Shown here piece by piece: positions 32,425 to 58,804 of a stretch of 64,000 bases of DNA. The DNA is from Cyanobacteriota bacterium. Lineage in GTDB: Bacteria > Cyanobacteriota > Cyanobacteriia > Thermostichales > Thermostichaceae. Below the pieces are notes generated by a model. The model saw only the letters and a program-made list of their open reading frames with translations. It ran no database searches and was not told the origin of the DNA. Each line of letters starts with the position of its first letter. Position 1 is the first letter of the stretch. The position numbers and the translations under genes were made by a program. The stretch is taken from contig JANRIL010000011.1 of the NCBI GenBank assembly GCA_033764955.1, positions 32,001 through 96,000 of the forward strand. Direction: 5' to 3'.

Positions 32425-33597
32425 CTAGTCTAAGCCAGGGATCCCAGGGGTCTCGGCCTGCTTGGATTTACGAGAGGATCCTTTGGGCTTGGCTTGGGAT
32501 CCCCCGATGATCTCCTCTTGATAGCGTTGCTGGTTGAGTTTGAGCAGGCGAGCAAGGACTTCATCGTGGACTTCTTCGGGCCAGCGATAGCGCCAGGGTT
32601 TCTTGCGTTTGCTGGTTCCTTCGTCGTCTTCGTCTTCGTAGTCGAGCAGGAATTCGCAGTCGGTGGGGATGTCGTGCCAACCGTAGGCATCGAGGACGGC
32701 ACGATCCATTTGGGCATGGAGTTCGCGTTGTTTGAGGATATCGGGGTTGGTTTCGTCGGGGTCGTGGAAGCGGTTGTAGGTGGCGGTGAGTCCCTCGTTG
32801 TGGCGGATCATGAGATCGGCGCGGAATTCGTAGTAGGTTTTGCCTGCGGCTTCGAGGATGGGGTTAGTTTCCCAATCAAAAGGGAAGGGGAAGGTTTCAA
32901 AGCAGTCAGAAGGCGTGTAGCGGAGGTCATCTTTCATAGATGAACCCAAGAATCGCGCCCAAATTTCATGAATACGAGATTGAAGAATACAGAAAGTAGA
33001 GTAAGTTCCAAGTGAGACAACAATAAGTTGTTCAGAATAAACCATCCCGCTTGGTAGAAATGTAAATGCTCCAGTTTGACTAACACGAGGAATAACTAAC
33101 ACCCGATCGCACTGGGCGATCGCTTTTTGAAGGTCTAGAGCAGGGCGAGCAAACATCCACCATCTTGCAGGATTTACAATTGAGCCTTGTGTTAACCTTT
33201 TAGGCTTAACCTTCTCTTCCACGATTGCCATCAAGTCCGGATACTTCTGCATCTCATCTTCCTTCATGTCACCAAAATTAATCACATAGCGATGATGAGC
33301 ATGAGTGGGGCTACTATTCACTTCCTCACCGCCAATGTAAGGAAAAATCCGTTCTGCATTGCGCGGATCTTTTTCGATTAAGCGGTGCATTTCTGCAATA
33401 GGGGTCGCATCGGAATTAGAGTCATCAAACGTAAACCCCATCCCTAACACATAGCTACCTACGAAACTCTTGTTAGCATTTGCCAATAACACAGCAGGGT
33501 CATCATTTCCACCTTTTGCAAACAAAAACGCCGTAATTTTTTCAACAGGTTTGCCATCCAGTAAAATCGGAATATCAGGCGGAAAAGATTGCAGCAT
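32425..33597 (-). CDS. DISARM methyltransferase DrmMI, C-terminal (target-recognition) part
   Basis: GMGFTFDD, PYIGGEEVN, LRYTPSDCFETFPFP, GLTATYNRFHDP, EVLARLL. Confidence 0.85.
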   Translation of the reverse strand: MLQSFPPDIPILLDGKPVEKITAFLFAKGGNDDPAVLLANANKSFVGSYVLGMGFTFDDSNSDATPIAEMHRLIEKDPRNAERIFPYIGGEEVNSSPTHAHHRYVINFGDMKEDEMQKYPDLMAIVEEKVKPKRLTQGSIVNPARWWMFARPALDLQKAIAQCDRVLVIPRVSQTGAFTFLPSGMVYSEQLIVVSLGTYSTFCILQSRIHEIWARFLGSSMKDDLRYTPSDCFETFPFPFDWETNPILEAAGKTYYEFRADLMIRHNEGLTATYNRFHDPDETNPDILKQRELHAQMDRAVLDAYGWHDIPTDCEFLLDYEDEDDEGTSKRKKPWRYRWPEEVHDEVLARLLKLNQQRYQEEIIGGSQAKPKGSSRKSKQAETPGIPGLD

Positions 33598-33632
33598 AAT
33601 CCATGCTTTAGAGTGACAAAGTTTTTAGTGCT

Positions 33633-34049
33633 CTACGGCAATAACAAGTTTTGAAATGGTTGATTGTTTTTCCAGCGATACGTGTTGAAGTCTCGCTGAT
33701 CGACTGAGAAAATGCGTCCGTGTCCTAAATGCTCAGCCAAAATCACTAGAGAAGCATCTGCCAAATCCATTGGTAAACTGGCATATTGCTTCATTAGTTT
33801 CGCAATTCTTGAACCAGATTCAGATGGTAAATCAAAAACATTAAAAAGTTTTTGGTGGTAATTGTTGATGAATGCGATTTGTGCCTGTACCCCTTTACGA
33901 GTAAGTAACAGATAACAAGTCTCAGTCATAACAGACCACGTTGTAATGAGAGATTCATCATAGGTTTGAAAAGCTTGATTGGCTGCTTCGTGATACCTAT
34001 CTTTTGCATCAGCGAGTGCCAACCAAAAACCCGTATCAACGATGATCAT
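33633..34049 (-). CDS. VapC family PIN toxin
   Basis: IIVDTGFWLAL, TETCYLL, MDLADASLV, VDQRDF. Confidence 0.9.
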   Translation of the reverse strand: MIIVDTGFWLALADAKDRYHEAANQAFQTYDESLITTWSVMTETCYLLLTRKGVQAQIAFINNYHQKLFNVFDLPSESGSRIAKLMKQYASLPMDLADASLVILAEHLGHGRIFSVDQRDFNTYRWKNNQPFQNLLLP

Positions 34050-34293
34050 ATTTTGTATTCCATCCCTCTGAAAGCACTTGTTTATAGTCTGTAGAAAGAT
34101 TTTCTTCTACAGAGACACAACCAATAAATCCGCTCTCTTTGAATTTCTGATAGGAACTGTCCTCAGCGTTTGCTTTCGATTGATCTACCTGCGGATATCG
34201 CTTTTTCAGGATTTCAATAAAATCCATCAGCAATAGTTGAGCCTCTTCAGGCAAGGCTTGAATATCTTGTTGCATCTGTTCCAGGCTAGACAT
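34036..34293 (-). CDS. Antitoxin partner of VapC (DUF2281-like)
   Basis: IQALPEEAQ.LL.DFIE.LK; ATG 34293 overlaps methyltransferase stop (TAATG). Confidence 0.75.
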   Translation of the reverse strand: MSSLEQMQQDIQALPEEAQLLLMDFIEILKKRYPQVDQSKANAEDSSYQKFKESGFIGCVSVEENLSTDYKQVLSEGWNTKYDHR

Positions 34294-37094
34294 TATGCAG
34301 CACCTCCAACCATCGTTTTTTCGCGGGCAACTGTCCCGATCTTCATGATATGCACTAAACTCACCACCACTGCCGCTAATCCCGGCCATTTGTAACGGCG
34401 GGTGGCGTTGTAAATCATGCCGCCATTGTTGCAAATAAACCGGAGGCCGGTGCTGCGAGTGTCGCCCTGAGCGATGGTGTTGGTCGCAATTAAACCAACC
34501 GTGCCGCCCCAACGCAGCAATGTAAACGATCGCCTAAAGAAGTGCGCCACCAGATCCGCATTGCCGTGAGATTCGGGATGCACAATTTTCAACCACTCCA
34601 GATACCCCTCAGGATGGGCGTTAATCGTCGTATTTTTCCCCGCAAACGGTGGATTGCCCACGATCGCATCAAACCCCGAATTTTCCCGCTCAAACACTTC
34701 AGGAAACTCTAATTCCCAGTTAAACGGCTGTACTGCCTTGGTTCCCGTTGTTAGCTTGGCAACAACTGATTGAATTTCAGATTCATCCACCAATCCCTTC
34801 TCATAGCCAATCAATTTACCGCCAAATTCCTCACGATATTTCTGCCGTTGTTTGGCATTGTCACCCGCAAAGAAAGAGGCGACTGCGACTTTTGCTGTTA
34901 ATCGAGCCGGTTCTAAGGCGCGATCGACATCTTGCAATAACGCCTGTTTTGTCTCCGCATCCCCATCTGATCGCGTATCCGACGTTTGAATCTGCTGTCG
35001 ATACGCCAGTGCCTTCGTTGCCGACTGCTTCATTAACAACTTGTGGTCTTCAAAAAACGTTGGCTCATAAGCTGCACTTGCCCCAAAGCTACCAATCTCT
35101 GTTCTGGTCAGCCCCACCAGCGAATCACCGCACTTGAGCGCATGATCCAAAAACGTAAACGGCAAATCTTTTGCCAGCGTCACCAACCACAGCGACAATC
35201 GCGCCAGGTTCACCGCAAACGGGTTCTTATCCACCCCATACAAACACCGCTGCGCCACCAATCGCCGCGCCACCACCACATCCTCCACCGTCTCCGGCAG
35301 ATCCGCTGGCTTGCCGTGATAGTTCCAGGCTTCCACCAACTTGTCTGCCAACTGCCGACAGGCTTCCACCAAAAACGCCGCAGAACCCATCGCCAGATCG
35401 CACACCTTCAGATCCAACAACTGCTCTGGTGTAGGATGCTCGCCTAAATTCTTCAGCACAGGCTCCAGCGTCTTCTCCACGATCGGCTGCGTCAACTTCC
35501 GAGGCGTGTAGTGAGACCCCGATCGCCGCCGTTCCTCTCCCGGTTGCAAAAACAGACTGCCTGCCGCTAACAAATTAGGAGTTCTGGACGAAACCCGACG
35601 ACCAATGGCAGCAGCAATGTCTTCTGCCGTTTTTGCCTCCTTCAACTCCTTCAAGGCTGCCCCTTTCAGTTCACACTCTGCCGCTTTGAGAATGTTGACG
35701 CGATCGGCTGGCTTTGCCGCCAGGATCTTGTCTACATCCACCACCACATCTTTCGGACGAACGGCGATCGATCGTCCGTGGGCAATCTCCACCTCATAGC
35801 CCATGATCGCCTCATAAACCGAGCCAATCTGCTCAACATCAAGGGCACGATAGGATAATCGCTCTCCATCCAACATCAGCAGCTTATCCAGCATTCGGTA
35901 AACCACCCCATCTGAGACGCGAGGGGCTTCAATTCTGCCGAAGGTGGCAAAGTGAGAAGCGATCGGGCGACCTTCTAAAAACGGGTACTCATCTGGGTCA
36001 AACAACTGCCCATGCCGCGCGGGAAGGTACTCCTCCGTCGGGCCACCTCCGTCATACACCAGACGAAACAGACTCAACAGCGTTGCCCATGCCCCATACC
36101 GCTGATCCATCGTGTCTGGGTAGTTGCCTGCATCCTCTCGCAACTTCTCATACAGCCCCGACACCGCGTAGTTGCGCTGATAAACCTCATCATCCGGCAT
36201 CAGCCCTTCATCTTCGGCATAGAGCAGGAACACCAGCCGCATCAGCGTGGTGATCAGCCCCCCATAGATATGCTGCGGGTCAGTTTCAGCTAACTCTCTG
36301 AGGATCTTTCCATTTACTGTTGCATCCGCCGCCTGAAACCCTTTCAGTAATTCCCACAGGGCATCCAAAACCTGTTCCGCCAGTTTGGTGGAGACCTCGG
36401 CTTGATAGTGGCGGCTATCTTCCAGCAGTTGGGGCAACCGTTGCGCTTCTGGCACGTTAAAGAGTCGTTCGGATCCGAGTAGCAGATCCAAGGCCCCCAA
36501 AATCAGACGCCCCGACACCTCGGTCATGGCCTGCACTGGGAACGTCACATGACCGGATGATTCCCCATTGGGGGCAACCACCAAGCGGATCGCGGTGCCG
36601 TTAAACAGGATCCCTTGATAGACCTTGGTTTCTCGCAACAGCCGCTCAAACTTGGCTTGAGAACTGGCTTTCCATCCGTGAGCACTTGCAAAGGGATCCT
36701 CATCGTCAAAGGGTTGCCCTGTAGGCAGAGTTTGGATGAGCAGGATCCAGGTATCCGCTTGCCCATCCGTCCCTTTCACGGCATAGGTGGGACTGAGAAC
36801 CTCGCCATAATTGGGCAAAGCTACCGTTAATTCCTCAGGGGGATCCTTTAGGTCATCAGGCAGCCACCCCAGTACAGTTTGAGTGAAACCAGGAAAATCA
36901 GGGATCCAAGCACAGGGATCCCCTCGCAGCTCAGGCGTTGTGACCGCCAGGAGCTTTTCTTGGAGATCCACCAGTTTGCCTCGATCAATAATGGCCTGCG
37001 CTTTGATCAGAGCAGGGGGAGAGACCACCAGACCGACAGGTTGTAGTAGTCCTAGCCATTCTTTGTGGCGGTAGGTGTCGAGATCTGTGCTCAT
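34293..37094 (-). CDS. DISARM adenine methyltransferase DrmMI, N-terminal/catalytic part
   Basis: GSHYTP, CDLAMGS (motif I), YGVDKNP, GNPPF (motif IV). Confidence 0.88.
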   Translation of the reverse strand: MSTDLDTYRHKEWLGLLQPVGLVVSPPALIKAQAIIDRGKLVDLQEKLLAVTTPELRGDPCAWIPDFPGFTQTVLGWLPDDLKDPPEELTVALPNYGEVLSPTYAVKGTDGQADTWILLIQTLPTGQPFDDEDPFASAHGWKASSQAKFERLLRETKVYQGILFNGTAIRLVVAPNGESSGHVTFPVQAMTEVSGRLILGALDLLLGSERLFNVPEAQRLPQLLEDSRHYQAEVSTKLAEQVLDALWELLKGFQAADATVNGKILRELAETDPQHIYGGLITTLMRLVFLLYAEDEGLMPDDEVYQRNYAVSGLYEKLREDAGNYPDTMDQRYGAWATLLSLFRLVYDGGGPTEEYLPARHGQLFDPDEYPFLEGRPIASHFATFGRIEAPRVSDGVVYRMLDKLLMLDGERLSYRALDVEQIGSVYEAIMGYEVEIAHGRSIAVRPKDVVVDVDKILAAKPADRVNILKAAECELKGAALKELKEAKTAEDIAAAIGRRVSSRTPNLLAAGSLFLQPGEERRRSGSHYTPRKLTQPIVEKTLEPVLKNLGEHPTPEQLLDLKVCDLAMGSAAFLVEACRQLADKLVEAWNYHGKPADLPETVEDVVVARRLVAQRCLYGVDKNPFAVNLARLSLWLVTLAKDLPFTFLDHALKCGDSLVGLTRTEIGSFGASAAYEPTFFEDHKLLMKQSATKALAYRQQIQTSDTRSDGDAETKQALLQDVDRALEPARLTAKVAVASFFAGDNAKQRQKYREEFGGKLIGYEKGLVDESEIQSVVAKLTTGTKAVQPFNWELEFPEVFERENSGFDAIVGNPPFAGKNTTINAHPEGYLEWLKIVHPESHGNADLVAHFFRRSFTLLRWGGTVGLIATNTIAQGDTRSTGLRFICNNGGMIYNATRRYKWPGLAAVVVSLVHIMKIGTVAREKTMVGGAA

Positions 37095-44646: not shown

Positions 44647-47600
44647 CTAATTAGAGATCGGCCAGAGATAAATTAACCCTACTGGTTCCACTCGTTCCGC
44701 CTTCACCCTATAAGTTTTCTGAATCCGATCTGGTTCTGTTTGGATCTCTTGCTCTAACTGGCTGAGGCGGATTTCCCAGTGACGGTGATCGGCGTTAATT
44801 TGTCGCAATTCATCCGCATTGAATAACCCCAGTTGGATCGTCTCAAATTTGCTCTTTTCTTTGAGGATCCGATCTCGTTGCTCTTGTAAAAGTTCTTTCA
44901 TTTCCTTGGCTTCAGACTCTCCTCGCTGGTTGAGTTTACGCTGAGCGCGTTCACTCAGTTCCTTGGCCCGCCGCTCCAAATGAGGGATCAGATCCTGGAC
45001 GTCTTGGGGGGCAACCCCTTTGAGCTTCTCCAGCACTGGGGGTGGCACTTCCCGTAGGCGAGGGCTGGCGAGGGAATCCTCTAAAATCTGCAAAACATCC
45101 TTCTTTTCGCCCTCAGTAACAGGTCTTAAACGGCCCCGACCTCTGGCCTCAGGATCCACCCATTCAGCGGCCACAGTGATGATTTCATCATGCAAACGAG
45201 CTGCCCGTTCCCCGTACAGCGATAACCGTCCCAAGATCACCACTCGAGGAATGGGATCCTCACTGCGACAGACACAGGCGCGGCTGAGTTCGTGGTGCAA
45301 AAATCCCTGGGAGAGGAACCGTCCCAATAGCCGTTGCACAATGCGGTGCTCTAAATGCAGATGCACCACCTCACCATCCAGGGATCCTGGATCTTTGAAG
45401 ACTACCGGACGAATGGGGGCTTCTTTCCGCCAGTCCCAGAGTTTCTGGGTCTTCTGGCGTGGTTGCCTTAGACTGTCAAGAGTCATCGCCCAGGTGGGAT
45501 CCGCACCGGCTTCTTGATCGAGAGCAGGCAACAGCCAACGGGAACGTTCATTGTCACCGATGGCTTCCTGGGCAGAGAGAGGCTTGAGGGGTTGGGATCC
45601 GAGTAGCTCCAATGAAACGGACAGAGCCTCTCGAAAATGGCGATCATCCAATCCTAACCATTGCTGCGAGTCACGAAGCATGGTTTCCAACTCCACCTGT
45701 TGCTGTCGGAGTTTGTCCTGGCGAAGGCGAATGGCTTCCAGTTCTTCCCGAATTGCGCCGCGCCGCTCATCATCGTTGTCTTTGTCGGCCTGGTTTATAG
45801 CGGAGCTGAGACTATCAACCTCGGTTACTCGGATCCCTCGCTCCAACAACTTGGTGACGTTCTTCTCCACCACCGGGGAGAGGCTACCCAATTCTTCCTG
45901 GATCCGTTGGGTCTTTTGCACCAGCACATCCATCACCCTGTCTTCAGGGCGCTGGGGTAAGACGAAGTAATAGCAACGGACTTCAGTCTGTCGCTGGAGT
46001 TTGCGGTCAATCCGCCCATTGCGCTGTTCCATGCGGCTGGGGTTCCAGGGCACATCAAAGTGAAACAGATCTGCACAGTGATTTTGTAGGTTTACCCCCT
46101 CACGGGCAGCGTCGGTGGCAATGAGAATCCGCAAGGGATGTTTGTGGGGATCCATGTTGAAGGCTTCTTTGATTAAGCGGCGATCCTCTTTACTCATCCC
46201 GCCATGAAATGTACCAATCCGGTCATAATCACGGTCGGATCCGGCAATCAAAGAGCTTAACTGTTGTTCCAAATAGCGCTTGGTATCAGCGTATTCGGTG
46301 AAAATTAGTACCCGTGTAGGCATCCATGCTGCTCCTGGGGATCCCATCTTGGGGCAGAGGTTTTGACGGATCCAGTCGCCTAATTTTTTGACTTTGCTAT
46401 CAGGTTGGTGGCGGCTTCGCTCAGCAATCTGGGTCATCTCTTCTAACAGTTCAAGTTCTTTTGAGGTGATGCCCTCGGTTCCGGAGCGGCTGGCCTTTTC
46501 CATCTGAGCCGTTTCTTCTGCAAAGACTTCCAGTTCATCAAGATCGGCTCGCTCGTCATCGGAGCCTGGAGATTCCCATAACAGGGGATAGGATTGCTGG
46601 GTTTCCGGGACTACTTTTTCTAACTGCTTTTGGATCCCGCGTCGGTGAACCCTCAAAGTGCAAGCAAACGCTTCGATAGAGGACATTAGCCGCTTTTGCA
46701 AAGAGGTGATCACCAACATGGACGTCGTTAGGGTGGAGCGGGGAGCTGATTTCAGCCGTTCCTCTCGGCAGGTTCTATACTCCTGCAGCAGTTGAGCCAG
46801 CGTTAACTCTGGGACATCATCCGGCAATCCATCAATCACTACGGGTACGACATGACGCAATGGAAAATCAGCGTTATTAATTTCTCGTAGATCCTGCTTA
46901 AGACGACGAACCATCACCGCATCCAGCAGTTTCTTGCTCCGTACAGGCACCCCTCGACAAAATCGCTGCGGATCCAAAATTTCTAAAAGCGCCGCAAAGC
47001 TATTGGAGTGTCCGTTGTGAGGGGTGGCAGACAAGAAGAGCCGATGTTCAAAGCGAGGAGCCAATTCCCGCACTGTGCGAGTGAGTTGGGAGTCAATGGC
47101 ATAGCGGGTTCCACTGGCGGGGGCAGCATTGTGAGCTTCGTCGAGGATGAGTAGGGATCCTGGGGCAAAGTCCTGCATCCAGTCTCGTAAGGGTGCAGCG
47201 TAGGTTTCATCCCGCAATAGTGCGTGGGAGATGATAAATCGATTGTGGGTTTTCCATGGGTTCATGCCGTAGCCCCTTTCTCGACGCTTGGCCGCCACAA
47301 AATCTCGGTCATAAACAATGAAGGTGAGCCCAAAGCGGCTCTCCATCTCATCTTTCCACTGATCCACCACTGAGGGTGGGCAAGAGATCACGACCCGCTT
47401 CACCTTCTGCCGCATCAGCATCTCTCGCAGGATCAGTCCAGCCTCTATGGTTTTGCCTAAGCCCACATCATCAGCGATGAACAGATTTACCCTTGGCATT
47501 TTCAAGGCTTTACGAAGGGGTTCTAGCTGGTAAGCTTTGACCTCAATCCCAGCTCGGTAAGGAGCTTGAAAAAGTTTGGGTTCAGTGGAAGTGACACAGT

Positions 47601-47868
47601 TCCACCTCAGAGCGTGCAGAAATGCAGAAAATTGGCGAGGTTGATCAAAGCCCCGTTGAGTGACCTGTTCCCAGGAAGAGGTGGCCAAGATCTGGGCATC
47701 AATTTCCCTTTGCCAGAATACATTTAGAGGCTCACCCTGAGCATCGTCTTCCAAACAAGCCAGCCTCACCTGGGTATCCCCTGTGGGGGATGGGATAACC
47801 TCCTCAACGAGATATTGACGGGAGCGGATTCTAACTATCTGACCCAGTTCTGGAGAGATTGAGTGCAC
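44647..47868 (-). CDS. drmD: DISARM SNF2-like helicase DrmD
   Basis: ADDVGLGKT, DEAH, SATPHNG, TDAAREGVNLQ, EQRNGRIDR; first gene of drm operon. Confidence 0.93.
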   Translation of the reverse strand: MHSISPELGQIVRIRSRQYLVEEVIPSPTGDTQVRLACLEDDAQGEPLNVFWQREIDAQILATSSWEQVTQRGFDQPRQFSAFLHALRWNCVTSTEPKLFQAPYRAGIEVKAYQLEPLRKALKMPRVNLFIADDVGLGKTIEAGLILREMLMRQKVKRVVISCPPSVVDQWKDEMESRFGLTFIVYDRDFVAAKRRERGYGMNPWKTHNRFIISHALLRDETYAAPLRDWMQDFAPGSLLILDEAHNAAPASGTRYAIDSQLTRTVRELAPRFEHRLFLSATPHNGHSNSFAALLEILDPQRFCRGVPVRSKKLLDAVMVRRLKQDLREINNADFPLRHVVPVVIDGLPDDVPELTLAQLLQEYRTCREERLKSAPRSTLTTSMLVITSLQKRLMSSIEAFACTLRVHRRGIQKQLEKVVPETQQSYPLLWESPGSDDERADLDELEVFAEETAQMEKASRSGTEGITSKELELLEEMTQIAERSRHQPDSKVKKLGDWIRQNLCPKMGSPGAAWMPTRVLIFTEYADTKRYLEQQLSSLIAGSDRDYDRIGTFHGGMSKEDRRLIKEAFNMDPHKHPLRILIATDAAREGVNLQNHCADLFHFDVPWNPSRMEQRNGRIDRKLQRQTEVRCYYFVLPQRPEDRVMDVLVQKTQRIQEELGSLSPVVEKNVTKLLERGIRVTEVDSLSSAINQADKDNDDERRGAIREELEAIRLRQDKLRQQQVELETMLRDSQQWLGLDDRHFREALSVSLELLGSQPLKPLSAQEAIGDNERSRWLLPALDQEAGADPTWAMTLDSLRQPRQKTQKLWDWRKEAPIRPVVFKDPGSLDGEVVHLHLEHRIVQRLLGRFLSQGFLHHELSRACVCRSEDPIPRVVILGRLSLYGERAARLHDEIITVAAEWVDPEARGRGRLRPVTEGEKKDVLQILEDSLASPRLREVPPPVLEKLKGVAPQDVQDLIPHLERRAKELSERAQRKLNQRGESEAKEMKELLQEQRDRILKEKSKFETIQLGLFNADELRQINADHRHWEIRLSQLEQEIQTEPDRIQKTYRVKAERVEPVGLIYLWPISN

Positions 47869-48114
47869 TGATTCTTCTCAGGTTTTGCTTACAACGGTAG
47901 CAAAAGCTTTACGGGCTCTGATCACGACATGCAAGCAAGAATGATGAATGATGAGGCATTAGGGAGAGAATTGACACACCGACTGCAATTACTCGGCCTT
48001 GCTTTGGATCTGTTCCTCGCACTCCGGAGCAATCCTATCCAGTCTTTATGGTTGTCAGGCTGAAAGTTCCACTGTCAATAGTTTGTTTGGGGTGAGTCGG
48101 CTTGGATCTTGCCT

Positions 48115-48318
48115 CTATTCATAAGCAGGTTTCAGTTCCCAGGAATCTTCGATGGTGGTGGTTTCCTTTCCCCGTCGCCACTTGACTTTGTAACGACCCG
48201 TGCGGGTAATGCCAATGACTTCCCCAATAGGGTAGATAGGCCAGCCACAAGGATCTTTGGGAAAGCGGCGGGTGAGGGTGTTGCGGTAACTTACACGGTC
48301 GCCAATCTGGAATTCCAT
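48115..48318 (-). CDS. Small hypothetical protein (SH3/KOW-like)
   Basis: FQIGDRV...GEVIG...YKVKW; GGAG RBS. Confidence 0.55.
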   Translation of the reverse strand: MEFQIGDRVSYRNTLTRRFPKDPCGWPIYPIGEVIGITRTGRYKVKWRRGKETTTIEDSWELKPAYE

Positions 48319-48357
48319 ACTGAGATCTCCACTCAATTCACCCAAGCCGTAGGACAG

Positions 48358-48615
48358 TTATCGCCAGCCATATCCAGGCTTGGGACGAGTGTAATAGTCA
48401 GGGTGAACCGCACGGTCAGCCGCATCTTTTACGTCGTCATGGGCATAAGGGATCCCTCGTTGCAGGCATTCGTCCTTGAGGAGATCAATGAGTTCAGATA
48501 GGTCGATATCGGGGTTGGCTTTCTCAAGTTGACGGGCTAAGGTTCTAAGTTTCATGGTGGGTGGGGTGTCGGGGTGGAGCCTGGTACACTCCTTCACCAG
48601 GCGGTAGGGCGACAA
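48358..48615 (-). CDS. Small hypothetical protein
   Basis: ORF fits the co-oriented array and ends right at an array motif. Confidence 0.5.
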   Translation of the reverse strand: MSPYRLVKECTRLHPDTPPTMKLRTLARQLEKANPDIDLSELIDLLKDECLQRGIPYAHDDVKDAADRAVHPDYYTRPKPGYGWR

Positions 48616-48654
48616 AGAATAGGGATCCCCATCGGTTAGGGATCCCTAATCAAT

Positions 48655-49182
48655 CTATGCAGGTAGTTCCAACGGCTGAGCTTCTGCATCTTTGAGATGC
48701 CGGACATCTGCTAGGCGGGAAGCATAGAGATCCTGCTCACTGGCGAAGGCTTGCAGTTCTGTCACACGTTTCTTGTTCGACTCTTTCCACTCAAACTCGA
48801 CGGCGTAGTAGACTCCCAGATCACCGGAGCGCTTGGACATCTTGGCGGTGGTCACCCCTTGCCCGACAGCTTTGCTCTGGGATGCCAGATCGAGCATGAA
48901 GTCGAGAAAGTTATCCAAGCTCTGAGTTTTGAACAGAATGTGGCTGACGACATTACGCGGATCCACAAACAGAACTTCCAGCCAAGTTTGATGCGGATAG
49001 TCGAAAAGCTGATCCTCGAAGGTACGCCAAGATAGGATTTCCATTGCCAATGTGGATCCGATAAACTTGGATTCGCCAATTTTGAACACACCGGACTTGC
49101 AATCAGCGCGATACTGACAGGGGCGGCCAGGAATGTAGGTGATTCCTTTCAGGTCAGGGGTAGCAAATGCGTTCGCAAACAT
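48655..49182 (-). CDS. Hypothetical protein, possibly ssDNA-binding (beta-rich)
   Basis: Strong AAGGAG RBS, 175 aa; function is inference only. Confidence 0.55.
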   Translation of the reverse strand: MFANAFATPDLKGITYIPGRPCQYRADCKSGVFKIGESKFIGSTLAMEILSWRTFEDQLFDYPHQTWLEVLFVDPRNVVSHILFKTQSLDNFLDFMLDLASQSKAVGQGVTTAKMSKRSGDLGVYYAVEFEWKESNKKRVTELQAFASEQDLYASRLADVRHLKDAEAQPLELPA

Positions 49183-49233
49183 GATGATTTCTCCTTTTGA
49201 GAAACTAAGTTACACAATCACCAGAGGACTCAG

Positions 49234-49665
49234 TTAAGCTCCTATTTTTGACTGTTGTGCATTGATATATTCACGCAAATTCTGATATCCATTGGCAAAC
49301 AGAACAGCATAGCCATGTTTACAGCAAGCTTGCTTGAAAAATACCTTTTGATTCTGGTAGTCATCACAGGTGCAATGCAAGCTACTGCTTTGGAGTAAGA
49401 CTTGATGTTGATGCCCATTCTCTGGATTGAAAACGAGATAATGATTTTGAGAATTTAGCTTGATCTCCAACTCTGTAGCTAAAGACTTACGAGTTTCCAC
49501 AAAGTCTTGGTGGAAGGCTTTTCGAGACAGGAAGCGGGGACGGGATCCCTTGACTTGAGCGAGTATCACTCTAGGCCAGACTTGGATCTGGATGTGGTGA
49601 GGCATGACTCCCAGGATGCGGCTGGCAGCGGTGCGGGAATACAACATCTTCTCTTTCGTTATCAT
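49234..49665 (-). CDS. SWIM zinc-finger protein
   Basis: CTCDD...CKH motif. Confidence 0.75.
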   Translation of the reverse strand: MITKEKMLYSRTAASRILGVMPHHIQIQVWPRVILAQVKGSRPRFLSRKAFHQDFVETRKSLATELEIKLNSQNHYLVFNPENGHQHQVLLQSSSLHCTCDDYQNQKVFFKQACCKHGYAVLFANGYQNLREYINAQQSKIGA

Positions 49666-49700
49666 TGTTTAGCCCTCTTAACGACACCCATTCCGTAGGA

Positions 49701-50030
49701 CTAATACTCGCTACTGTGCATTAATGTTAGAACCCGTCTCGTTTGAGTTAGATCCGCTGGATCTGGGGAGAGATATTTCAAGCTCTGGTCGTAGTAGTCT
49801 ATCTTCCAGAAATACTTTTCTCCATTATAGTCAATTGCCCCAAAGTCATGCTCTCCATAAGGATCATTGTCTTCATTAAAGACATTAAACTGTCTGACTA
49901 GCTGGAGTAGTTCTGAGATATGGGATCCCAGTAATTGAACAGTTGGAGTGATGACAATGTAAGCATTCCAGGATTTGCGGAATTCGTCATTCAGCTGAGC
50001 AATTCTTTGAGTTGTTTGTGTGATTGACAT
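49701..50030 (-). CDS. DUF3768 domain protein
   Basis: IAQLND.FR, NDPYGEHDFG, FWKIDYYD, RVLTLM..SEY. Confidence 0.88.
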   Translation of the reverse strand: MSITQTTQRIAQLNDEFRKSWNAYIVITPTVQLLGSHISELLQLVRQFNVFNEDNDPYGEHDFGAIDYNGEKYFWKIDYYDQSLKYLSPDPADLTQTRRVLTLMHSSEY

Positions 50031-50067
50031 GGGAAGGTCTCCTTGTTTCACAATTGCCGTAGGACTG

Positions 50068-50421
50068 TCAATACATGATGTGACTGGGTTTATTAAGGGA
50101 CTTGGCAAGTTGGATGCTATGGGCAGTGCCGGGGCTGAATCCGTCCCAAAAGGCGACAATTACATCCGCCGCTTGAATAATGTCGTGATTGCGTCGGATC
50201 CCTGCTAACTTGCCGTGTTGATGCCAGTCGGCGGGGTGGATTTGGACAGGGATCCCTCTGGCACGAGCTGCTTGTTCCGCCGTCTGGTCAACGCCTCTGG
50301 CTCCACCACTAATGACGATGCAACCCTCTGGTAATTGAGCAACAAAATCCCGCACGGCTTTGAGATTCCAGTAAGTCCTGGAGCCAATGACTGCTACACG
50401 ACAGGGATGAGTGGTGAGCAT
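50068..50421 (-). CDS. SLOG superfamily (DUF2493/YspA-like) protein
   Basis: VIGSR, SGGARGVD, AGIRRN, AFWDG.SPGT. Confidence 0.85.
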   Translation of the reverse strand: MLTTHPCRVAVIGSRTYWNLKAVRDFVAQLPEGCIVISGGARGVDQTAEQAARARGIPVQIHPADWHQHGKLAGIRRNHDIIQAADVIVAFWDGFSPGTAHSIQLAKSLNKPSHIMY

Positions 50422-50454
50422 AAACTCTCCGTCAACTTCACCCCCGCCGTAGGA

Positions 50455-50628
50455 CTACAACTGGTCGGCTAGCGCAGTCAGGATCCGGTTCACATAGACC
50501 TCTTGTTCGCGCCAGCGGCCCCTTGGGGCATAGATCGGCACTTCTTCTGGTTGGCTATCAGGGAAATGTTCTGCAATCCAGACTAGGGCTTGTTCCATCA
50601 GGTAATCCAGGATTTGAGAATTGAGCAT
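50455..50628 (-). CDS. 57-aa hypothetical protein (not in ORF track)
   Basis: GGAG RBS, MLNSQILDYLMEQALVW..., bounded by array motifs on both sides. Confidence 0.55.
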   Translation of the reverse strand: MLNSQILDYLMEQALVWIAEHFPDSQPEEVPIYAPRGRWREQEVYVNRILTALADQL

Positions 50629-50666
50629 GAGTGTGTCTCCACATCGACACCCCCGCCGCAGGACTG

Positions 50667-50840
50667 TTAATCATCTCCCAGTAATCGAGTCATGAAATTG
50701 AACAGCTTCTCGCCGGAATCAGAATCCGAATCATCCAACGTAAACACCGCCATGCGCCTAGGGCACGCTAGCGCGAACACTACATTCACGTCTTCATCCA
50801 CATAGTAGATTTCTGGGGATCCGTTCTCTTGATCTGACAT
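50667..50840 (-). CDS. 57-aa hypothetical protein
   Basis: MSDQENGSPEIYY..., bounded by array motifs. Confidence 0.45.
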   Translation of the reverse strand: MSDQENGSPEIYYVDEDVNVVFALACPRRMAVFTLDDSDSDSGEKLFNFMTRLLGDD

Positions 50841-50959
50841 TTCATCGACCTTCACTGACGTCACCCACTCCTTAGGACAGCCTAAACCTTTCTTTAGAGG
50901 GAGATGGGGTCTGGGGAACGCGCAGGGGAAGGGTGGGGTAAGTTCCCCAGTGGAGAGGT

Positions 50960-50984
50960 AAAAAAAGGGGATCTCGGGATCCCC
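50960..50984 (-). terminator. Intrinsic terminator
   Basis: Minus strand GGGGATC-CCGA-GATCCCC followed by T7. Confidence 0.7.
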
Positions 50985-50992
50985 AACTTGAT

Positions 50993-51166
50993 TTAGCGGC
51001 TGACGGCGACGTAGATGTTGCCCCACTTGGACTTGGCAACACGGGCACCGGGATAGTGAGTGGAGAATGCCAGAGCCGTGTTGATGTCCTTAAAGTGGGC
51101 GATGTAGGCATCAGGGGTCAGGACTGTACGGGTGGCACCCCAGAGACGGGCAAAGTTGAAGCACAT
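50993..51166 (-). CDS. 57-aa hypothetical protein (not in ORF track)
   Basis: AAGAGG RBS, MCFNFARLWGATR...GNIYVAVSR, followed by terminator. Confidence 0.5.
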   Translation of the reverse strand: MCFNFARLWGATRTVLTPDAYIAHFKDINTALAFSTHYPGARVAKSKWGNIYVAVSR

Positions 51167-51727
51167 AGGAAAAACCTCTTAACGATGCCAGCACAAAGAT
51201 CCCGCCCCTCTCCTGCAAGCAAGGCTCAGGCACCTTGGAATATCGCAGGGACGAGAATATGCCGAGAAAGGCATGGACGACTCTTGCAGTCCGGCTGTTC
51301 GCGCCAGTGTGCCCAAGGCGCAATCAGTTGGTGGTTTTGGGTGGGACACGGTGCCGTGGCAGTGGAGAGGGATCCGCTGTGCCGCTTGACTCCCGACCTG
51401 GTGCCTCCCTATTCCTGTTCGGTCTAGATGCCGTCAACATTTGGGACATCAACATCTCAGGCACATCAACTTCTGGTGTGGGAGGGGAACGGAGTGCTGG
51501 TGGGTGGGGCGAATTGAGGGATCCCTGGGGAGAACGGGGGTATGGGGGAATGCGGCGGGTGGGTGGGTCAAGTTCCCCCATTGTGAGGTGGACAAGCTCT
51601 GTTGGACACGTCACCTGAGCAAGAGTCCCGACGTGCGGCAGCGGGTCGGTTCCATAGCCGGGTTTAGGGATCCCTTGGCTTAAGGAATAAGAACTGGGGA
51701 GAATAAATCCCCCCAGCCTTGTCAGAC

Positions 51728-52150
51728 TTAGATAGCTCGATTGAACCGGGCAGCACTGCGTTCTGCATTCAACGCCAAGAGGCTTTCGAGGTCATGCTGG
51801 TAGTGCTTGTGGGCAAATTCCACCAATTCTTCCAGACTGGCTTTGATGAATCCTCGGTCGAATTCGTCTTTGAACTGTTCCCAGGCTTCTGCATAGAGCT
51901 GTTTGATGGCTGCCGGGTCATATTCCGGGCGGCTGTAGGATCCATCTTTTAGGCGGACAGGAGGGGCAATGGGATCCAAGGTGCCATCATCTACTGCATC
52001 TTTGAAAATGCGTCCTTTGGACTCTTCCCAGACTAGGGACCGCAGGGTGTAGAAGACGGCTTGCTGTTTGCGAAAGGTTGATTGTTCGTCACGTTCACGG
52101 GTGGTGAGAGGGCGGAACTTGCTAGAGAGGGCTGACTTTTCAATGGACAT
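51728..52150 (-). CDS. Hypothetical protein
   Basis: GGAG RBS, start MSIEKS; followed by hairpin at about 51693-51717. Confidence 0.65.
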   Translation of the reverse strand: MSIEKSALSSKFRPLTTRERDEQSTFRKQQAVFYTLRSLVWEESKGRIFKDAVDDGTLDPIAPPVRLKDGSYSRPEYDPAAIKQLYAEAWEQFKDEFDRGFIKASLEELVEFAHKHYQHDLESLLALNAERSAARFNRAI

Positions 52151-52584
52151 AGGACAAACTCCAAAATCGATAACCCCGTGCCAGGGAGCAAGGCCAGAAG
52201 ACGGAAAGGGGCGACGGCAACCGTAGGGCTTGTTCGCGCCAGCGTGCCCAAGGCGCAAGTTTTTCCGACCTGCCTTTTTAGGAAAAAGTTTTGACGGCGT
52301 ACATTTCACCCCTTGGAGTCTGAGTCGCCGCAGATCCTACGCTCAGGGGTCGATTTCTGGGGTGTCTGTTTGTCCACGAAGTTTGCCATAAGCAGGGGTT
52401 CGCTTTACTGCTGAACTGGATGAACGGATTTTCATTGGGGAGTGGAATGGCGGCGCGGTGGTGGGTGGGTCAAGCCGCTTCATCATTAGGGATCCCTAAA
52501 AGTCAATAGGTTCTAGGGATCCCCTAAAACAAAGGGATCCCTCAAAACAACGAGATAGTGCTACGCACACACAAGGTCAGTTCC

Positions 52585-52746
52585 TCAAAATGGCCAGTCA
52601 AAAGGTAGGGATCCCCATTCTTCCATCTCCCATAATTCCCGCTCTGCTTCACGGAGTTTTTCTCGCTGGTCAATTTCTAAATCGAGGGATCCCCATTCGG
52701 CTTGAGCCACGAGGAAATCAACCATTGGGTCGCCACTTCTGTACAT
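52585..52746 (-). CDS. 53-aa acidic hypothetical protein (not in ORF track)
   Basis: MYRSGDPMVDFL...EWGSLPFDWPF, directly after an array motif. Confidence 0.4.
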   Translation of the reverse strand: MYRSGDPMVDFLVAQAEWGSLDLEIDQREKLREAERELWEMEEWGSLPFDWPF

Positions 52747-52762
52747 AATCAACACTCATCAA

Positions 52763-53095
52763 CTACACCCGCTCCGTAGGACTGTTGACACTTGCCAAGA
52801 TTTGCTCTTGTTGCCGTTGAATAACTTTTAGGGAGGAGACTCTATGGCAGATTGCAGTTTTTATATCTTCCATTTGGTCAAGTAAGTAGCCGTATGCTTC
52901 ACCAGCACCATTTTCAGGTAGAGCATCAAAGGCAGCGCGTAATGAGAAGTAGACCTTGAGTTTGTTTTTCAGCCATTGCGCTTGAGATTCTAGTTCTGCT
53001 AGTTGGATAGAATCGGGATTTCTGGCGTTCATTAACTCCAGGATTCGTTGCTCTAATTCGGTCAAATCAGAACTTAATTTCTGTAAGGCGGTCAT
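52763..53095 (-). CDS. Coiled-coil hypothetical protein
   Basis: GGAG RBS, first gene of the array. Confidence 0.6.
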   Translation of the reverse strand: MTALQKLSSDLTELEQRILELMNARNPDSIQLAELESQAQWLKNKLKVYFSLRAAFDALPENGAGEAYGYLLDQMEDIKTAICHRVSSLKVIQRQQEQILASVNSPTERV

Positions 53096-53200
53096 CGTTA
53101 AGTCTCCACATTTTCACTCCTTTCCGTAGGACTATTTGGTTTGGGTTTATTTGTTGCGTGGGATAGGGATCCCTTGACTCTGTGACGGTGGACAGGGAAC

Positions 53201-53244
53201 TGATATGGATTTGATATGGATTTAATACGGAACTAATACGGATT
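53201..53244. repeat. Four tandem 11-bp repeats (TRATAYGGA..) in divergent intergenic region
   Basis: TGATATGGATT TGATATGGATT TAATACGGAAC TAATACGGATT. Confidence 0.75.
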
Positions 53245-53346
53245 ATCGATTATGCCTTTGGCACGCTTGCGCGAACACTTGCCTAGTCATGTGCCCAGGT
53301 CTTCAAAGGACTCTGTGATACGGTCGGAATAGGGGGGATGTGAAGT

Positions 53347-53520
53347 ATGGACAAAGGCAAGATCAAGCAACTGCGCCTCTCTCTGGGGATGACTCAGGAA
53401 CAATTTGCGGCGGCTTTGGGGTGTACTACATCCACCGTTGTGCGCTGGGAAAGTGGCAAATCTTCTCCCTCCCCGTTGGCGCAACAATCCATGTTCAAAC
53501 TGGCTCCTGCGTTTGCCTAG
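53347..53520 (+). CDS. XRE/Cro-type HTH regulator, 57 aa (not in ORF track)
   Basis: MDKGKIKQLRLSLGMTQEQFAAALGCTTSTVVRWESGKSSP. Confidence 0.85.
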   Translation: MDKGKIKQLRLSLGMTQEQFAAALGCTTSTVVRWESGKSSPSPLAQQSMFKLAPAFA

Positions 53521-53586
53521 TCATCTGCTCTGGAGAACTGAATTCACCCTGAATATCGTGGTCATAAATGGACTTAGGGATCCGAT

Positions 53587-54297
53587 ATGGCACGAAATAA
53601 AGGGATTATTCAACTGCAAGGAACGGTAGGGGGTTTGACCTTCAAACGGGATGGCACGATTAGTCAGGCGGTGGGATCCCGTCCGGTGACGGCGGAACGA
53701 ACGAAGGAAAATAACACTGAATTTGCCATTGCTGCCAAGCAAGCCAAGGTGATCCGGGATGCCTTGCGGGGCTTAGATGTAGGCGACCGCTTTCTGGCAG
53801 GGCGGATGGTGAAGGTGGTGCGCTCTGGGGTGGCGTTGGATCCCGATAATGAGCGGGGTAAACGGATCTTGTCGAATAACGAGGCGCGGCAGGTGTTGCC
53901 TAAGTTTGAGTTGAACGGCAATGCCAATCTGACTTCGGTGGCTCCGCTGGCGTGGGTAGTGGCAGGAGATGCGCTGACGATTACCAAGATGGGGGGCGGG
54001 GTGCTGACTCCTCGGGATATTTATGCTCCAGCGGGGACTACGGATATCTCGGTGATGGCGTTGGTGGCGACTGTGAATTTGGATCCTGATGTGTTGAGCG
54101 TGGTGGAGGCGGGAATGACGGCGTTTCCGGTGGTGGGAAATCCGGGTGCGGCTGAGTGGAGTGTGCCGTTGCCGGAAGATCCAAACTTGCTGACTTTGGG
54201 GGCAGTGGGGGTGAAGTTCTTTCAGCGTGTCAACGGCGAGTTGTATTCGCTGCGGAATGGATCCTATGACGTGGCTCAGATTGTGGTGGTGCGGTAA
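53587..54297 (+). CDS. Hypothetical protein, candidate virion/structural protein
   Basis: 236 aa; basic N-terminal half, beta-rich C-terminal half; directly upstream of lysis-like genes. Confidence 0.6.
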   Translation: MARNKGIIQLQGTVGGLTFKRDGTISQAVGSRPVTAERTKENNTEFAIAAKQAKVIRDALRGLDVGDRFLAGRMVKVVRSGVALDPDNERGKRILSNNEARQVLPKFELNGNANLTSVAPLAWVVAGDALTITKMGGGVLTPRDIYAPAGTTDISVMALVATVNLDPDVLSVVEAGMTAFPVVGNPGAAEWSVPLPEDPNLLTLGAVGVKFFQRVNGELYSLRNGSYDVAQIVVVR

Positions 54298-58150: not shown

Positions 58151-58804
58151 TTAGTGCGCCCGAAACGACCACAGCACTCGCCCGACTACCGCAAAATCCT
58201 CGGGTGGGTTCCGTAAATCAATCTGAAATGGTTCATAGGCAGGATTATCACTCATCACCCGCAATTGCCGCCCTGGCAGTAGATGCAACCGCTTCACCAA
58301 CAGCGTCTCATCCAACCGCAGCACACTAATCCCTTCCACCACCTCACGCGGCTTCGTATCCACCAAAATCAGATCCCCAGAACGCAACGTCGGTTCCATC
58401 GATTCCCCCCGCACCGAGATCAGATTCAACCCCTCAGGACTGGTGTGGCAGTGCAACCGGATCCACCCCTCACTAAAGGCAATCACCTCTTCCGGATCAA
58501 CCTCTTCCACAAACGTGCCCAACCCTGCCCCGGCACTGATGTCATAAATCGGGATCCGTACCAACCGATCTTCTGACGGTGGCTGAGGCATCTTGCGAAA
58601 CATCGGACCCTCACCACTCACCAACCAATCCACACTCACCCCCGAACAGCGGGAAATCAACGCCAACCGATCCGCCGTCGGCTGGGATCCCGACATATAT
58701 TTGCGGAGCGTACTATCCGGCAAGCCACAGCGATTGGCGAAATGAAAGACCGTTTCTTCACCCAACAGCAAGCGCAGACGGTCTTGGATGGTTTGTTTGG
58801 ACAT
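58151..58804 (-). CDS. CI/LexA-like repressor (HTH plus S24 peptidase)
   Basis: N-terminal HTH, SAGAG cleavage region, GESMEP Ser and VKRL Lys. Confidence 0.92.
   Translation of the reverse strand: MSKQTIQDRLRLLLGEETVFHFANRCGLPDSTLRKYMSGSQPTADRLALISRCSGVSVDWLVSGEGPMFRKMPQPPSEDRLVRIPIYDISAGAGLGTFVEEVDPEEVIAFSEGWIRLHCHTSPEGLNLISVRGESMEPTLRSGDLILVDTKPREVVEGISVLRLDETLLVKRLHLLPGRQLRVMSDNPAYEPFQIDLRNPPEDFAVVGRVLWSFRAH

Follow-up and report, generated by a model that had tools for sequence, protein, structure and literature searches.

A bipartite motif in fixed register with the start codons of small genes in a cyanobacterial integrated island

Repeats linked to start codons in the early regions of phages have been known for more than ten years, but their mechanism has not. 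In Cluster K mycobacteriophages the start-associated sequence (SAS) is given, in the portion of the report that we draw on, as a 13-bp repeat, GGGATAGGAGCCC, that lies 3–7 bp from the start codon and is itself the ribosome-binding site (RBS) (PMC3203893). For the stoperators of Cluster A mycobacteriophages the binding protein is known, a monomeric repressor that recognizes them as DNA, according to a source of which, again, a part is used here (PMC9283540). Here we analyze a short asymmetric motif that recurs in a stretch of 64,000 nucleotides, termed the window, from a cyanobacterium of the family Thermostichaceae (assembly GCA_033764955.1, contig JANRIL010000011.1, positions 32,001 to 96,000), where it precedes small genes of an integrated element. 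The motif was first pointed out in an inspection of the letters alone, which we call the sequence-only reading. That reading proposed that the motif is either a recombination joint of a cassette-capture array or an RNA-level signal.

Shine-Dalgarno (SD) sequences are normally spaced about 5–9 nt from the start codon. Standby sites and upstream SD-like enhancers are single-stranded stretches, complementary to the anti-SD sequence, that lie upstream of a partly structured RBS; the known standby sites are, to our knowledge, gene-specific and not repeated, sequence-conserved modules. In chloroplasts, binding of the PPR10 type could set the ends of mRNAs and prevent an inhibitory hairpin from occluding the RBS. 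The sites concerned are intercistronic protein-binding sites of chloroplast mRNAs, as the consulted part of their description has it (PMC3326301). The PeSL cassettes of T4-type phages consist of a strong sigma-70-like promoter and a terminator hairpin and recombine into mini-circles, as stated in the section of that study used here (PMC2839356).

The motif reads AGTCCT-RY-GG-N3-GGGTG on the sense strand, and nine copies are present on the minus strand of the window, which is the coding strand of the small genes (Table 1). The corresponding pattern, GTCCTNNGGN{5,6}GTG, has nine matches in the 64-kb window, all on the minus strand and all within one 5-kb stretch from 48339 to 53132. The nine copies named in the sequence-only reading were all recovered with the letters as quoted, and the impression that the motif does not occur elsewhere in the window proved right. 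Dinucleotide shuffles of the window contained a mean of 0.20 matches, and none of 100 shuffles reached nine; the motif is more frequent than by chance, and its genomic matches cluster in arrays. The bare core GTCCTNNGG shows no enrichment of its own in the window (13 matches, 8.5 expected). In the whole assembly, which comprises 3.8 Mb in 48 contigs and is 89% complete, the pattern has 32 matches. Because 25 of them lie in five short arrays, and the 7 found elsewhere are fewer than the 15 obtained with a reversed control pattern, we conclude that the motif is confined to the arrays. The sole full-length outlier, on contig C40, is antisense in the rpsM-rpsK spacer and looks like a chance match. 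No trans-acting antisense partner was found in the island or the genome.

The consensus of 32 copies, taken from this genome and one relative, is A-G-T-C-C-T-R-Y-G-G-N-R-N-G-G-G-T-G, in which the invariance of GTCCT and GG is partly due to how the copies were collected. Position 0 is A in 29/32 copies, and the GGGTG positions are retained in 25–30/32. We refer to the first ten bases as the 5' box and to GGGTG as the 3' box. The motif is followed by a looser W-M-R-T-T-G-A, a GGAG-type RBS and the start codon. One degenerate 5' box, missing from the list in the sequence-only reading, is kept in the paralogous array on contig C25 (Table 1).

The distance from the first base of the motif to the start codon is nearly constant. 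It is 35–40 nt in 36 of 40 copies from eight arrays in four genomes, and 45–48 nt in the remaining 4; this count omits three copies: one in genome G265 with nothing but a 23-codon frame behind it, the decayed one that precedes the 175-aa gene on contig C10, and the variant AGTCCGTTGGTCAGGGTG of array B, which lies 36 nt before its gene. Within the window the distance is 35–39 nt in eight of nine copies and 48 nt in one. The motif itself ends 17–21 nt before the start codon (30 nt in one junction) and the GGAG-type RBS is placed in between, in agreement with the spacing first noticed. This register is common to arrays in which the SLOG and SWIM-like proteins share only 26–60% identity.

Seven window junctions have an upstream gene. 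In six of them the upstream frame ends just before the motif, with its stop codon 0–6 nt away or overlapping the first two bases; in the seventh, at 52766–52783, the frame runs through the motif and stops directly after it. The copies at 53115–53133 and 50862–50879 head blocks of genes. The claim that seven copies adjoin a stop codon and two head a block is therefore borne out, with one case of read-through. The last gene of each block has no motif behind it, indicating that the motif belongs to the downstream gene. The proposed unit of motif, RBS and open reading frame (ORF) is thus correct, with the motif as the 5' element of the gene that follows. Every array copy lies on the sense strand before unrelated genes (9/9 in the window, 25/25 in the genome). 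We also considered that the motif opens a mini-ORF, and rejected it: a start-like NTG is found 2–5 nt after GGGTG in only about half of the copies, the codon is not conserved, and the resulting frames vary in length and phase.

Table 1. Positions of the motif copies and of other features of the small-gene array in the window
Feature	Position	Strand	Remarks
Motif copy 1, AGTCCTACGGAAAGGAGTG	53115..53133	-	One base longer; heads first block; 38 nt to ATG 53095 of 110-aa gene
Motif copy 2, AGTCCTACGGAGCGGGTG	52766..52783	-	Within last codons of 110-aa gene (stop 52763-52765); 37 nt to ATG 52746 of 53-aa gene
Motif copy 3, TGTCCTAAGGAGTGGGTG	50862..50879	-	Heads six-gene block; 39 nt to ATG 50840
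Motif copy 4, AGTCCTGCGGCGGGGGTG	50648..50665	-	Upstream stop TAA 50667-50669; 37 nt to ATG 50628
Motif copy 5, AGTCCTACGGCGGGGGTG	50439..50456	-	Upstream TAG overlaps first bases; 35 nt to ATG 50421 of SLOG/YspA-like gene
Motif copy 6, AGTCCTACGGCAATTGTG	50049..50066	-	36 nt to ATG 50030 of DUF3768 gene
Motif copy 7, AGTCCTACGGAATGGGTG	49685..49702	-	Upstream TAG overlaps first bases; 37 nt to ATG 49665 of 143-aa SWIM-like gene
Motif copy 8, AGTCCTCTGGTGATTGTG	49213..49230	-	48 nt to ATG 49182 of 175-aa gene
Motif copy 9, TGTCCTACGGCTTGGGTG	48339..48356	-	38 nt to ATG 48318 of 67-aa gene
Degenerate 5' box, AGCCCTACGG	52221..52230	-	In long leader of 140-aa gene, about 80 nt to ATG 52150; no GGGTG box
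Array of 12 small genes (53-175 aa)	48115..53095	-	About four transcription blocks; 9 genes with motif
Terminator-like hairpins of motif-less genes	51692-51718, 50967-50984, 48620-48648		
57-aa gene with XRE-type helix-turn-helix	53347..53520	+	Divergent from array
Copies of TGTTCGCGCCAGCGTGCCCAAGGCGCA element	50504-50531, 50753-50779, 51296-51323, 52231-52258, 53254-53279		

Variation between orthologous junctions is distributed by position. We compared eight junction groups, each represented in three or four arrays that are 79–92% identical. At core positions 0–5 and 8–9 only 1/64 cells is variable, a figure somewhat inflated by the choice of copies through the presence of the core. At positions 13–17, 11/40 cells are variable, compared with 25/40 at the RY and N3 positions, 59/96 in the 12 nt upstream and 64/136 in the 17 nt downstream. 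This position-specific pattern indicates purifying selection on the motif. We conclude that the motif is a genuine, selected, element-specific cis-element.

The 3' half of the motif is complementary to the 3' tail of 16S rRNA. The assembly contains no 16S gene, and the tail was taken from a relative (G001). Motif positions 8–22 pair with it at a mean free energy (ΔG) of -8.3 kcal/mol, and 31/40 copies reach -6 or lower. The proximal RBSs give a mean of -6.3 kcal/mol (30/40 at -6 or lower), and equivalent upstream windows of 806 other genes give -3.3 kcal/mol (18% at -6 or lower). By this complementarity the 3' half is SD-like, but it ends 17–21 nt before the start codon. The GGGTG box is therefore beyond ordinary initiation distance and is not an ordinary SD site.

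In two junction families, before the second 57-aa gene and before the SLOG gene, GG-N3-GGGUG forms the 5' arm of a predicted hairpin in all four arrays. This hairpin would enclose the RBS and end at the AUG, leaving the 5' box unpaired; in the window it involves the 3' half of copy 4 and, in the same way, copy 5. The N3 variants in these junctions (CGG, CAG and UAG) all keep the predicted pairing through wobble pairs, which with four sequences is only a hint. The spacer of copy 8, the sole long one in the window, contains a small hairpin over the RBS. No Rfam family or ribozyme was detected in 47500–54000 at E values up to 5.

A different function of the copies would be transcriptional: each could be a promoter, or the site of its activator, and the small genes would be transcribed separately. 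With the motif ending about 18–20 nt before the start codon, such promoters would give short leaders containing the RBS, and the copies that head blocks must be near real promoters. Against this, there is no AT-rich -10-like element at a fixed place between motif and start. A scan for sigma-70-like promoters and terminators found none at any of the nine copies, although it is insensitive and found none for the blocks either. Terminator-like hairpins occur at block ends only. No T7-type, single-subunit RNA polymerase gene was found in the 89%-complete genome in a search whose control genomes gave no signal either. We consider internal promoters very improbable.

Our tentative preference, held at slightly less than even odds, is that the motif is an RNA-level leader module that controls ribosome start on each small gene. 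Of the two options in the sequence-only reading, an RNA-level signal fits best, on account of the register and the 16S-tail complementarity; its mechanism is conditional in what follows. This preference starts from observed properties, namely the motif, its register, its strand, purifying selection, restriction to the arrays and complementarity to the 16S tail. It rests on the persistence of a fixed register across deep divergence, the sense-strand rule and the ownership by the downstream gene, together with the SD-like half, the tendency of upstream frames to end ahead of the motif, and the finding that no copy coincides with a promoter or terminator signal. The hairpins predicted in two junction families also speak for it. 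We infer from here an action in RNA, ribosome binding at the distal site and the existence of a trans-acting reader.

In such a scheme the small cistrons of the island's phage-like early operons would share an mRNA leader of about 40 nt, of which the motif is the upstream part: AGUCCU-RY-GG, a 3-nt spacer, GGGUG(A), a loose WAGUUGA, a GGAG RBS and the AUG. The G-rich, out-of-register SD-like box might capture a 30S subunit or hold a ribosome that has just terminated on the preceding cistron, and the held ribosome would then be passed to the proximal RBS and AUG about 20 nt downstream. The 5' box would be a separate recognition element, whose putative reader gates the hand-over. The downstream footprint of a terminating ribosome is about a dozen nucleotides. 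The reader could accordingly be imagined either as a protein or as the terminating ribosome itself, covering these ten bases. In the hairpin junctions, gating may consist of keeping the G-rich half from pairing with the start region.

Several observations weigh against this scheme. No gene precedes two of the window copies or, in any of the four arrays, the junction at the head of the block, so coupling to a preceding cistron is at most part of the explanation. The G-rich half is weak (ΔG -1.9 to -11.5) in the two arrays that are most distant, where the 5' box persists, which argues that the SD-like half is not the essential part. Three genes of the array lack the motif altogether, and no common secondary structure exists across copies. 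For the 5' box, no RNA partner emerged. Its best duplex with 16S rRNA is at -11.5, compared with -12.3 +/- 1.5 for shuffled 10-mers; the rRNA operons of G001 hold no 9-nt complement of it, and the island holds no sense-strand partner. In favor of the scheme, the box has an anti-SD-like character: it is pyrimidine-rich and pairs with SD-containing leaders at -5.5, compared with -4.0 for shuffled boxes, a value reached by 0/200 shuffles. However, the figure of -5.5 for its own leaders is matched by -5.9 for 1083 other SD-containing leaders. Finally, the orientation, asymmetry and intergenic placement of the motif suit a DNA operator equally well.

A more specific version, which we regard as unlikely, centers on the 5' box. 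There AGUCCU-RY-GG, on every cistron of the early operons of all element copies in a cell, would be an address tag for a dedicated RNA-binding reader, either island-encoded or host-recruited, that defines processed monocistronic 5' ends and unmasks the ribosome-binding region. If so, the small genes, probably with anti-defence or takeover functions, would form a separately switchable translational regulon. The tag would be a bacterial counterpart of the intercistronic PPR sites of chloroplasts, and it would explain start-associated sequences.

The main rival to an RNA-level leader is an asymmetric DNA operator of the stoperator type, to which we give about the same low probability as to the address tag. 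The repressor of the element would bind each double-stranded copy and silence the early operon: copies at block heads would stop initiation, and copies between genes would stop elongation. The asymmetry of the motif, its single orientation relative to transcription, its location in short intergenic spaces and at block heads, and its near-absence from the rest of the genome (7 outside matches, 15 for the reversed control) are all as expected for such sites. So are the two conserved boxes, whose centers about 12 bp apart would suit a two-domain monomer, and the drift of the 3' box in distant arrays while the 5' box stays, as binding specificities drift. The arrangement matches the published picture for Cluster A mycobacteriophages, in the part of the source used here (PMC9283540). 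The island also encodes two helix-turn-helix candidates, the divergent XRE-type gene adjacent to the array, a candidate DNA-level regulator of it, and a LexA/CI-like S24 repressor at 58151–58804. But neither accompanies all arrays: the XRE gene adjoins only arrays A, D and E (in the window and on contigs C11 and C25), and no S24 repressor was found in G397. A roadblock, moreover, requires neither a 35–40-nt register kept over deep divergence nor complementarity to the 16S tail, and nothing in a DNA site demands that upstream frames avoid overlapping the motif, as they mostly do. The spacer between the XRE gene and the array contains other repeats that look more like operators, namely four 11-nt direct repeats and a palindromic element of 24–27 nt.

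The direct repeats lie at about 53190–53245 on the minus strand, between the XRE gene and copy 1. The four tandem units of about 11 nt are two of TCCGTATTA followed by two of TCCATATCA, and the same divergent spacer contains a repeated CACAGAGTC; together they are likely operators or iterons. The longer element, TGTTCGCGCCAGCGTGCCCAAGGCGCA, is 24–27 nt with GCGCC...GGCGC arms and occurs five times in the window array, in both orientations (Table 1). Two copies are exact 24-nt in-frame insertions within small genes, absent from the orthologous genes on C10 and in G013; array B has one of the two as well. Comparison with array E shows a third copy as an insertion, in the leader of the 140-aa gene. 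Only arrays A and B contain the element in the whole genome, and it is either an operator or a very small mobile insertion specific to these arrays.

Searches in relatives show how far the motif extends. Searches of the host and of 401 sampled genomes of its class, in line with the suggestion of the sequence-only reading to scan host and relatives, found motif arrays in four genomes. Homologues of the 143-aa SWIM-like protein were found in 38/401 genomes; among the 30 loci examined, a motif array was present in 4. The carriers are the window genome, G013 of the same family, G265 (family f19, five copies) and G397 (family f17, four copies). In the latter two the 5' box and the register are retained, the 3' box has drifted (GAGGTG, GAGTG, GGATG, TTGTG), and the slots from the SLOG to the SWIM-like gene are occupied by other genes. 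Identity to the window SLOG protein is 56–60% in G265 and 26% in G397, where the gene is frameshifted; that of the SWIM-like protein is about 40–45%. A pattern of two copies spanning a SLOG unit picked out true arrays in 3/401 genomes. The two-copy matches in three others (G301, G264 and G354, AGTCCTCAGG-type sites) were judged to be chance from the matched text alone.

In the following other collections the motif array was not encountered. None of 160 loci with SLOG homologues (80 metagenomic, 80 viral) contains one, and tblastn against cultured-phage records gave no match for the 175-aa or the 143-aa protein. SWIM-like homologues are encoded on three cyanobacterial plasmids, and the one inspected lacks the array. 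All 29 loci returned from IMG/VR by the two-copy pattern are unrelated repeats, for example in collagen-like genes. One unrelated repeat picked up by this pattern, on the viral contigs L349 and L354 (5056–6529), has AGTCCTGCGG followed by TCTGGCTACCGCATCCAGCTAA and stands in seven tandem copies, one every 132 nt. An exact scan of 185,579 species genomes for GTCCTACGGNNNGGGTG yielded at least 119 single, scattered matches in unrelated phyla and is uninformative. Four metagenome runs from freshwater, lake and sediment contain contigs of relatives at 80–99% identity; these contigs are short, and array parts that they do not cover are uninformative. In seven loci from motif-less genomes of other cyanobacteria, the SWIM-like gene is the first of its operon. 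It has a clear -10 box there and, after it, a conserved leader of the form TAGTTGAGTTTGGTTT, loosely like the AGTTGA that follows the motif.

In the window genome itself, four further arrays with the same genes and the motif are located at C14:133491–138100, at the start of C10, at C11:17239–17605 and at C25:13872–14189. The order of six cassettes is identical in four arrays (79–92% identical), and the C10 array, which has broken genes, also carries a decayed motif copy. Comparison of homologous elements thus gave a divided answer to the expectation of gene gain, loss or shuffling at the motif: the order is invariant in the four close arrays, and the content differs in the distant ones. These data bear on a further possibility, that the leader has no role in expression beyond its RBS and persists as a homology patch for the exchange, gain and loss of genes. 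Five arrays with the motif coexist in one genome, and quartet support among four arrays is mosaic, shifting from one cassette to the next (AB|CF 5:0:1; AC|BF 12:6:5; AF|BC 13:6:6 and 20:6:7). The slots between the SLOG and SWIM-like genes differ in content in G265 and G397, and in one metagenome contig the motif and RBS are retained as far as 50634, beyond which another ORF takes over. Modular turnover at motif junctions therefore occurs. However, none of 11 joints in the contigs of the four metagenome runs, short and derived from relatives, links two motif copies, and the motif shows neither an inverted repeat nor the symmetry of a recombinase site. Homologous recombination would have a patch of just 18 nt to work on, which is short, and purifying selection by position, kept at about 40% protein identity, is hard to explain by evolvability. 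We think a linker without other function quite unlikely, below the DNA operator.

The recombination joint of a cassette-capture array, the other option in the sequence-only reading, finds no support: the motif has no inverted-repeat partner, the six-cassette order is invariant, the motif-to-motif joints number 0/11, and the integrases lie at the far end. Identity with integron attC sites was likewise rejected, as there is neither an inverted partner nor a common fold. In an integron-type array the integrase gene and the attachment site would stand at the head, and close relatives would differ in the order and content of cassettes; here the 57-aa XRE gene heads the array and the integrases are at the other end of the island (C14 95806–98630), the order is constant in the four close arrays, and gene content differs only in the distant ones.

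The 12 genes of the window array (Table 1) are mostly without recognizable domains. Pfam matches are limited to SLOG/YspA (117 aa) and DUF3768 (109 aa). The flanked genes are unrelated, as had been stated. For the 143-aa protein, Pfam does not bear out the SWIM assignment, and the label rests solely on the annotation of a 27%-identical plasmid homologue. Sequence searches of PDB and NCBIfam returned nothing useful for the unknown proteins, and a literature search found no paper on DUF3768. The three motif-less genes (140 aa, 57 aa beginning MCFNF, and 65 aa) have their own long leaders behind terminator-like hairpins, and copy 3 lies about 90 nt downstream of one of these, at 50967–50984. A C-rich repeat, GGGGAACTTGACCCACCCACC..., is present in three copies on the minus strand (50900–50960, 51545–51590 and 52440–52475), upstream of two motif-less genes and of the six-gene block. 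It contains CACCC, the complement of the GGGTG in the motif, and these sites are possible promoter regions. The palindrome GGGATCCC occurs 4915 times in the 3.8-Mb assembly, where about 58 are expected, with many copies at 48400–53600 of the window, and GCGATCGC occurs 109 times; the genome thus uses the GGGATCCC variant of the highly iterated cyanobacterial palindrome.

The array is part of an integrated element. Positions 1 to about 22000 of the window contain genes usual in cyanobacteria, Crr6 and CCB2/CCB4 among them; the element, beginning at about 24.7 kb, comprises defence cargo, then the small-gene array, then the divergent XRE gene. The cargo (24745–47868) includes a DISARM-like set of a PLD protein, an MZB-domain protein and a 1178-aa helicase. 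At 32425–37094 a PIN gene has been inserted into an MmeI-like methyltransferase, and the target-recognition part forms an ORF of its own behind the insertion. The rest of the cargo is a double helicase of 2493 aa (DEAD and UvrD) and an SNF2 helicase. Beyond the XRE gene follow an M15 peptidase, an FRG-domain protein, the S24/LexA-like repressor, a primase-helicase and a UvrD helicase. Immediately outside the window, on C14 (95806–98630), two tyrosine integrase genes stand face to face, flanked by mirrored UvrD, primase-helicase and S24-repressor genes, an arrangement indicating two related elements integrated tail to tail. The S24 repressor has 9 matches in this genome and 13 in G013, which suggests many related elements per genome. 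In array B the first gene is a full-length Sipho_Gp157 (3.4e-34) and a GH108 lysozyme gene precedes it, and on this basis we regard the array as a phage-like early operon.

The other arrays are accompanied by different cargo: a WYL regulator and a complete type I-E cas operon with a CRISPR array of 22–23 repeats on C11; HsdR, Fic and an AbiEii-like ATPase on C10; a UvrD-like helicase and unknown proteins on C14 (131501–146637); and a DUF499 protein in G013 (contig C124). The small-gene array looks like a constant module of a family of defence-carrying islands.

Another idea, in keeping with the cas operon directly beside paralogous array D on C11, is that the motif mimics the type I-E CRISPR repeat of the host. 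Cas6e or Cascade subunits would bind or cut the island mRNA at every junction, for processing or as a decoy, and the motif would imitate two parts of the repeat, the foot of its hairpin and the opening bases of the 5' handle of the CRISPR RNA. The I-E repeat of this genome, GTTGTCCCCACACCCGTGGGGGTGAACCG (22–23 copies on C11), has GTCC and GGGTGAA in the order of the motif, and the conserved boxes GUCC and GGGU can pair as at the base of the repeat stem. cas6e is found in 30/401 genomes and in 3/4 of those that bear the motif, in one as a fragment only; G013 and G265 carry I-E arrays with the same 3' end. Against mimicry, the motif lacks the apical 12 nt of the hairpin, its boxes stand 4 nt closer together, and the N3 positions needed to complete the similarity are variable. 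The repeat in G265 begins GCTTTCC while the motif there is still AGTCCT or CGTCCT, and G397 gave no cas6e match. The shared letters are few and were found post hoc among several candidate partners, so that chance is a fair explanation. We consider this idea about as improbable as that of internal promoters. Identity with a solitary CRISPR repeat unit or an RNA anti-CRISPR was rejected, since only GTCC and GGGTGAA are shared and the apical 12 nt are absent.

The motif is unusually informative in four respects. It is bipartite, with an invariant box and a distal SD-like box, stands in a fixed register and is under measurable position-specific selection. It is also present in five mobile-island copies within one genome, whose differing cargo includes DISARM/MmeI-like genes, a type I restriction enzyme and a type I-E CRISPR-Cas system. 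Should the motif control translation, it would offer a way into the timing of the early, probably anti-defence, functions of the islands, and it could be put to use as a compact insulator or translation element where several genes are expressed from one cyanobacterial transcript. Should it be a DNA operator, silencing of the stoperator type would extend beyond actinobacteriophages.

A search of the literature, supplements aside, found no description of the motif, in keeping with the sequence-only reading. Among the matches listed for the string GTCCTACGG were 16S primers, an unrelated promoter hairpin of a Klebsiella phage and others; among those listed for start-associated sequences together with cyanobacteria or cyanophages, no paper links the two.

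The comparisons that follow are with the portions of the cited sources used above. The PeSL cassettes resemble the motif as repeated units that flank small non-essential genes of a plastic region, with gene content that differs between relatives; they differ from it in that no copy of the motif has a promoter- or terminator-like site. Of the 11 joints in the short contigs of relatives, none connects motif to motif. The sites of the PPR10 type are about 17–20 nt long and, like the motif, lie between cistrons a few tens of nucleotides before a start codon; the inhibitory hairpins predicted in two junction families are a further likeness. A chloroplast site serves one or two genes, whereas the motif serves nine. 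Standby sites have the placement of the 3' half, and the invariant 5' box has no counterpart in them.

Stoperators share with the motif an asymmetric sequence of similar length, many repeats, positions in promoter regions and short intergenic spaces, and an orientation along transcription; they sit in a temperate element as the motif does in an integrated one. The motif differs by its SD-like half and by its fixed register to the start codon, of which none is reported for stoperators in the portion of the source used.

Like the motif, SAS are short asymmetric repeats that stand in one orientation before many unrelated non-structural genes. The upstream stop codon often lies within or beside the repeat, the repeats are nearly absent from the host chromosome and conserved across related elements, and part of the sequence pairs with the 16S 3' end, with a suspected role in translation initiation. 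The analogy drawn in the sequence-only reading therefore holds for orientation, for the single gene set and for absence from the host, and fails for position, since SAS lie within the RBS 3–7 bp from the start. The motif has another sequence, is 18 nt long, ends 17–21 nt (30 nt in one junction) before the start and leaves the RBS separate. Extended start-associated sequences (ESAS) are about as far from the start as the motif but, unlike it, form imperfect inverted repeats of 17 bp. SAS are found in phages, whereas the motif is found in a cyanobacterial integrated island with defence cargo and not in a sequenced phage. Start-associated sequences are thus the family closest to the motif, though it does not share their defining position, and with it this kind of motif extends to a further phylum and a further type of carrier, in a bipartite build.

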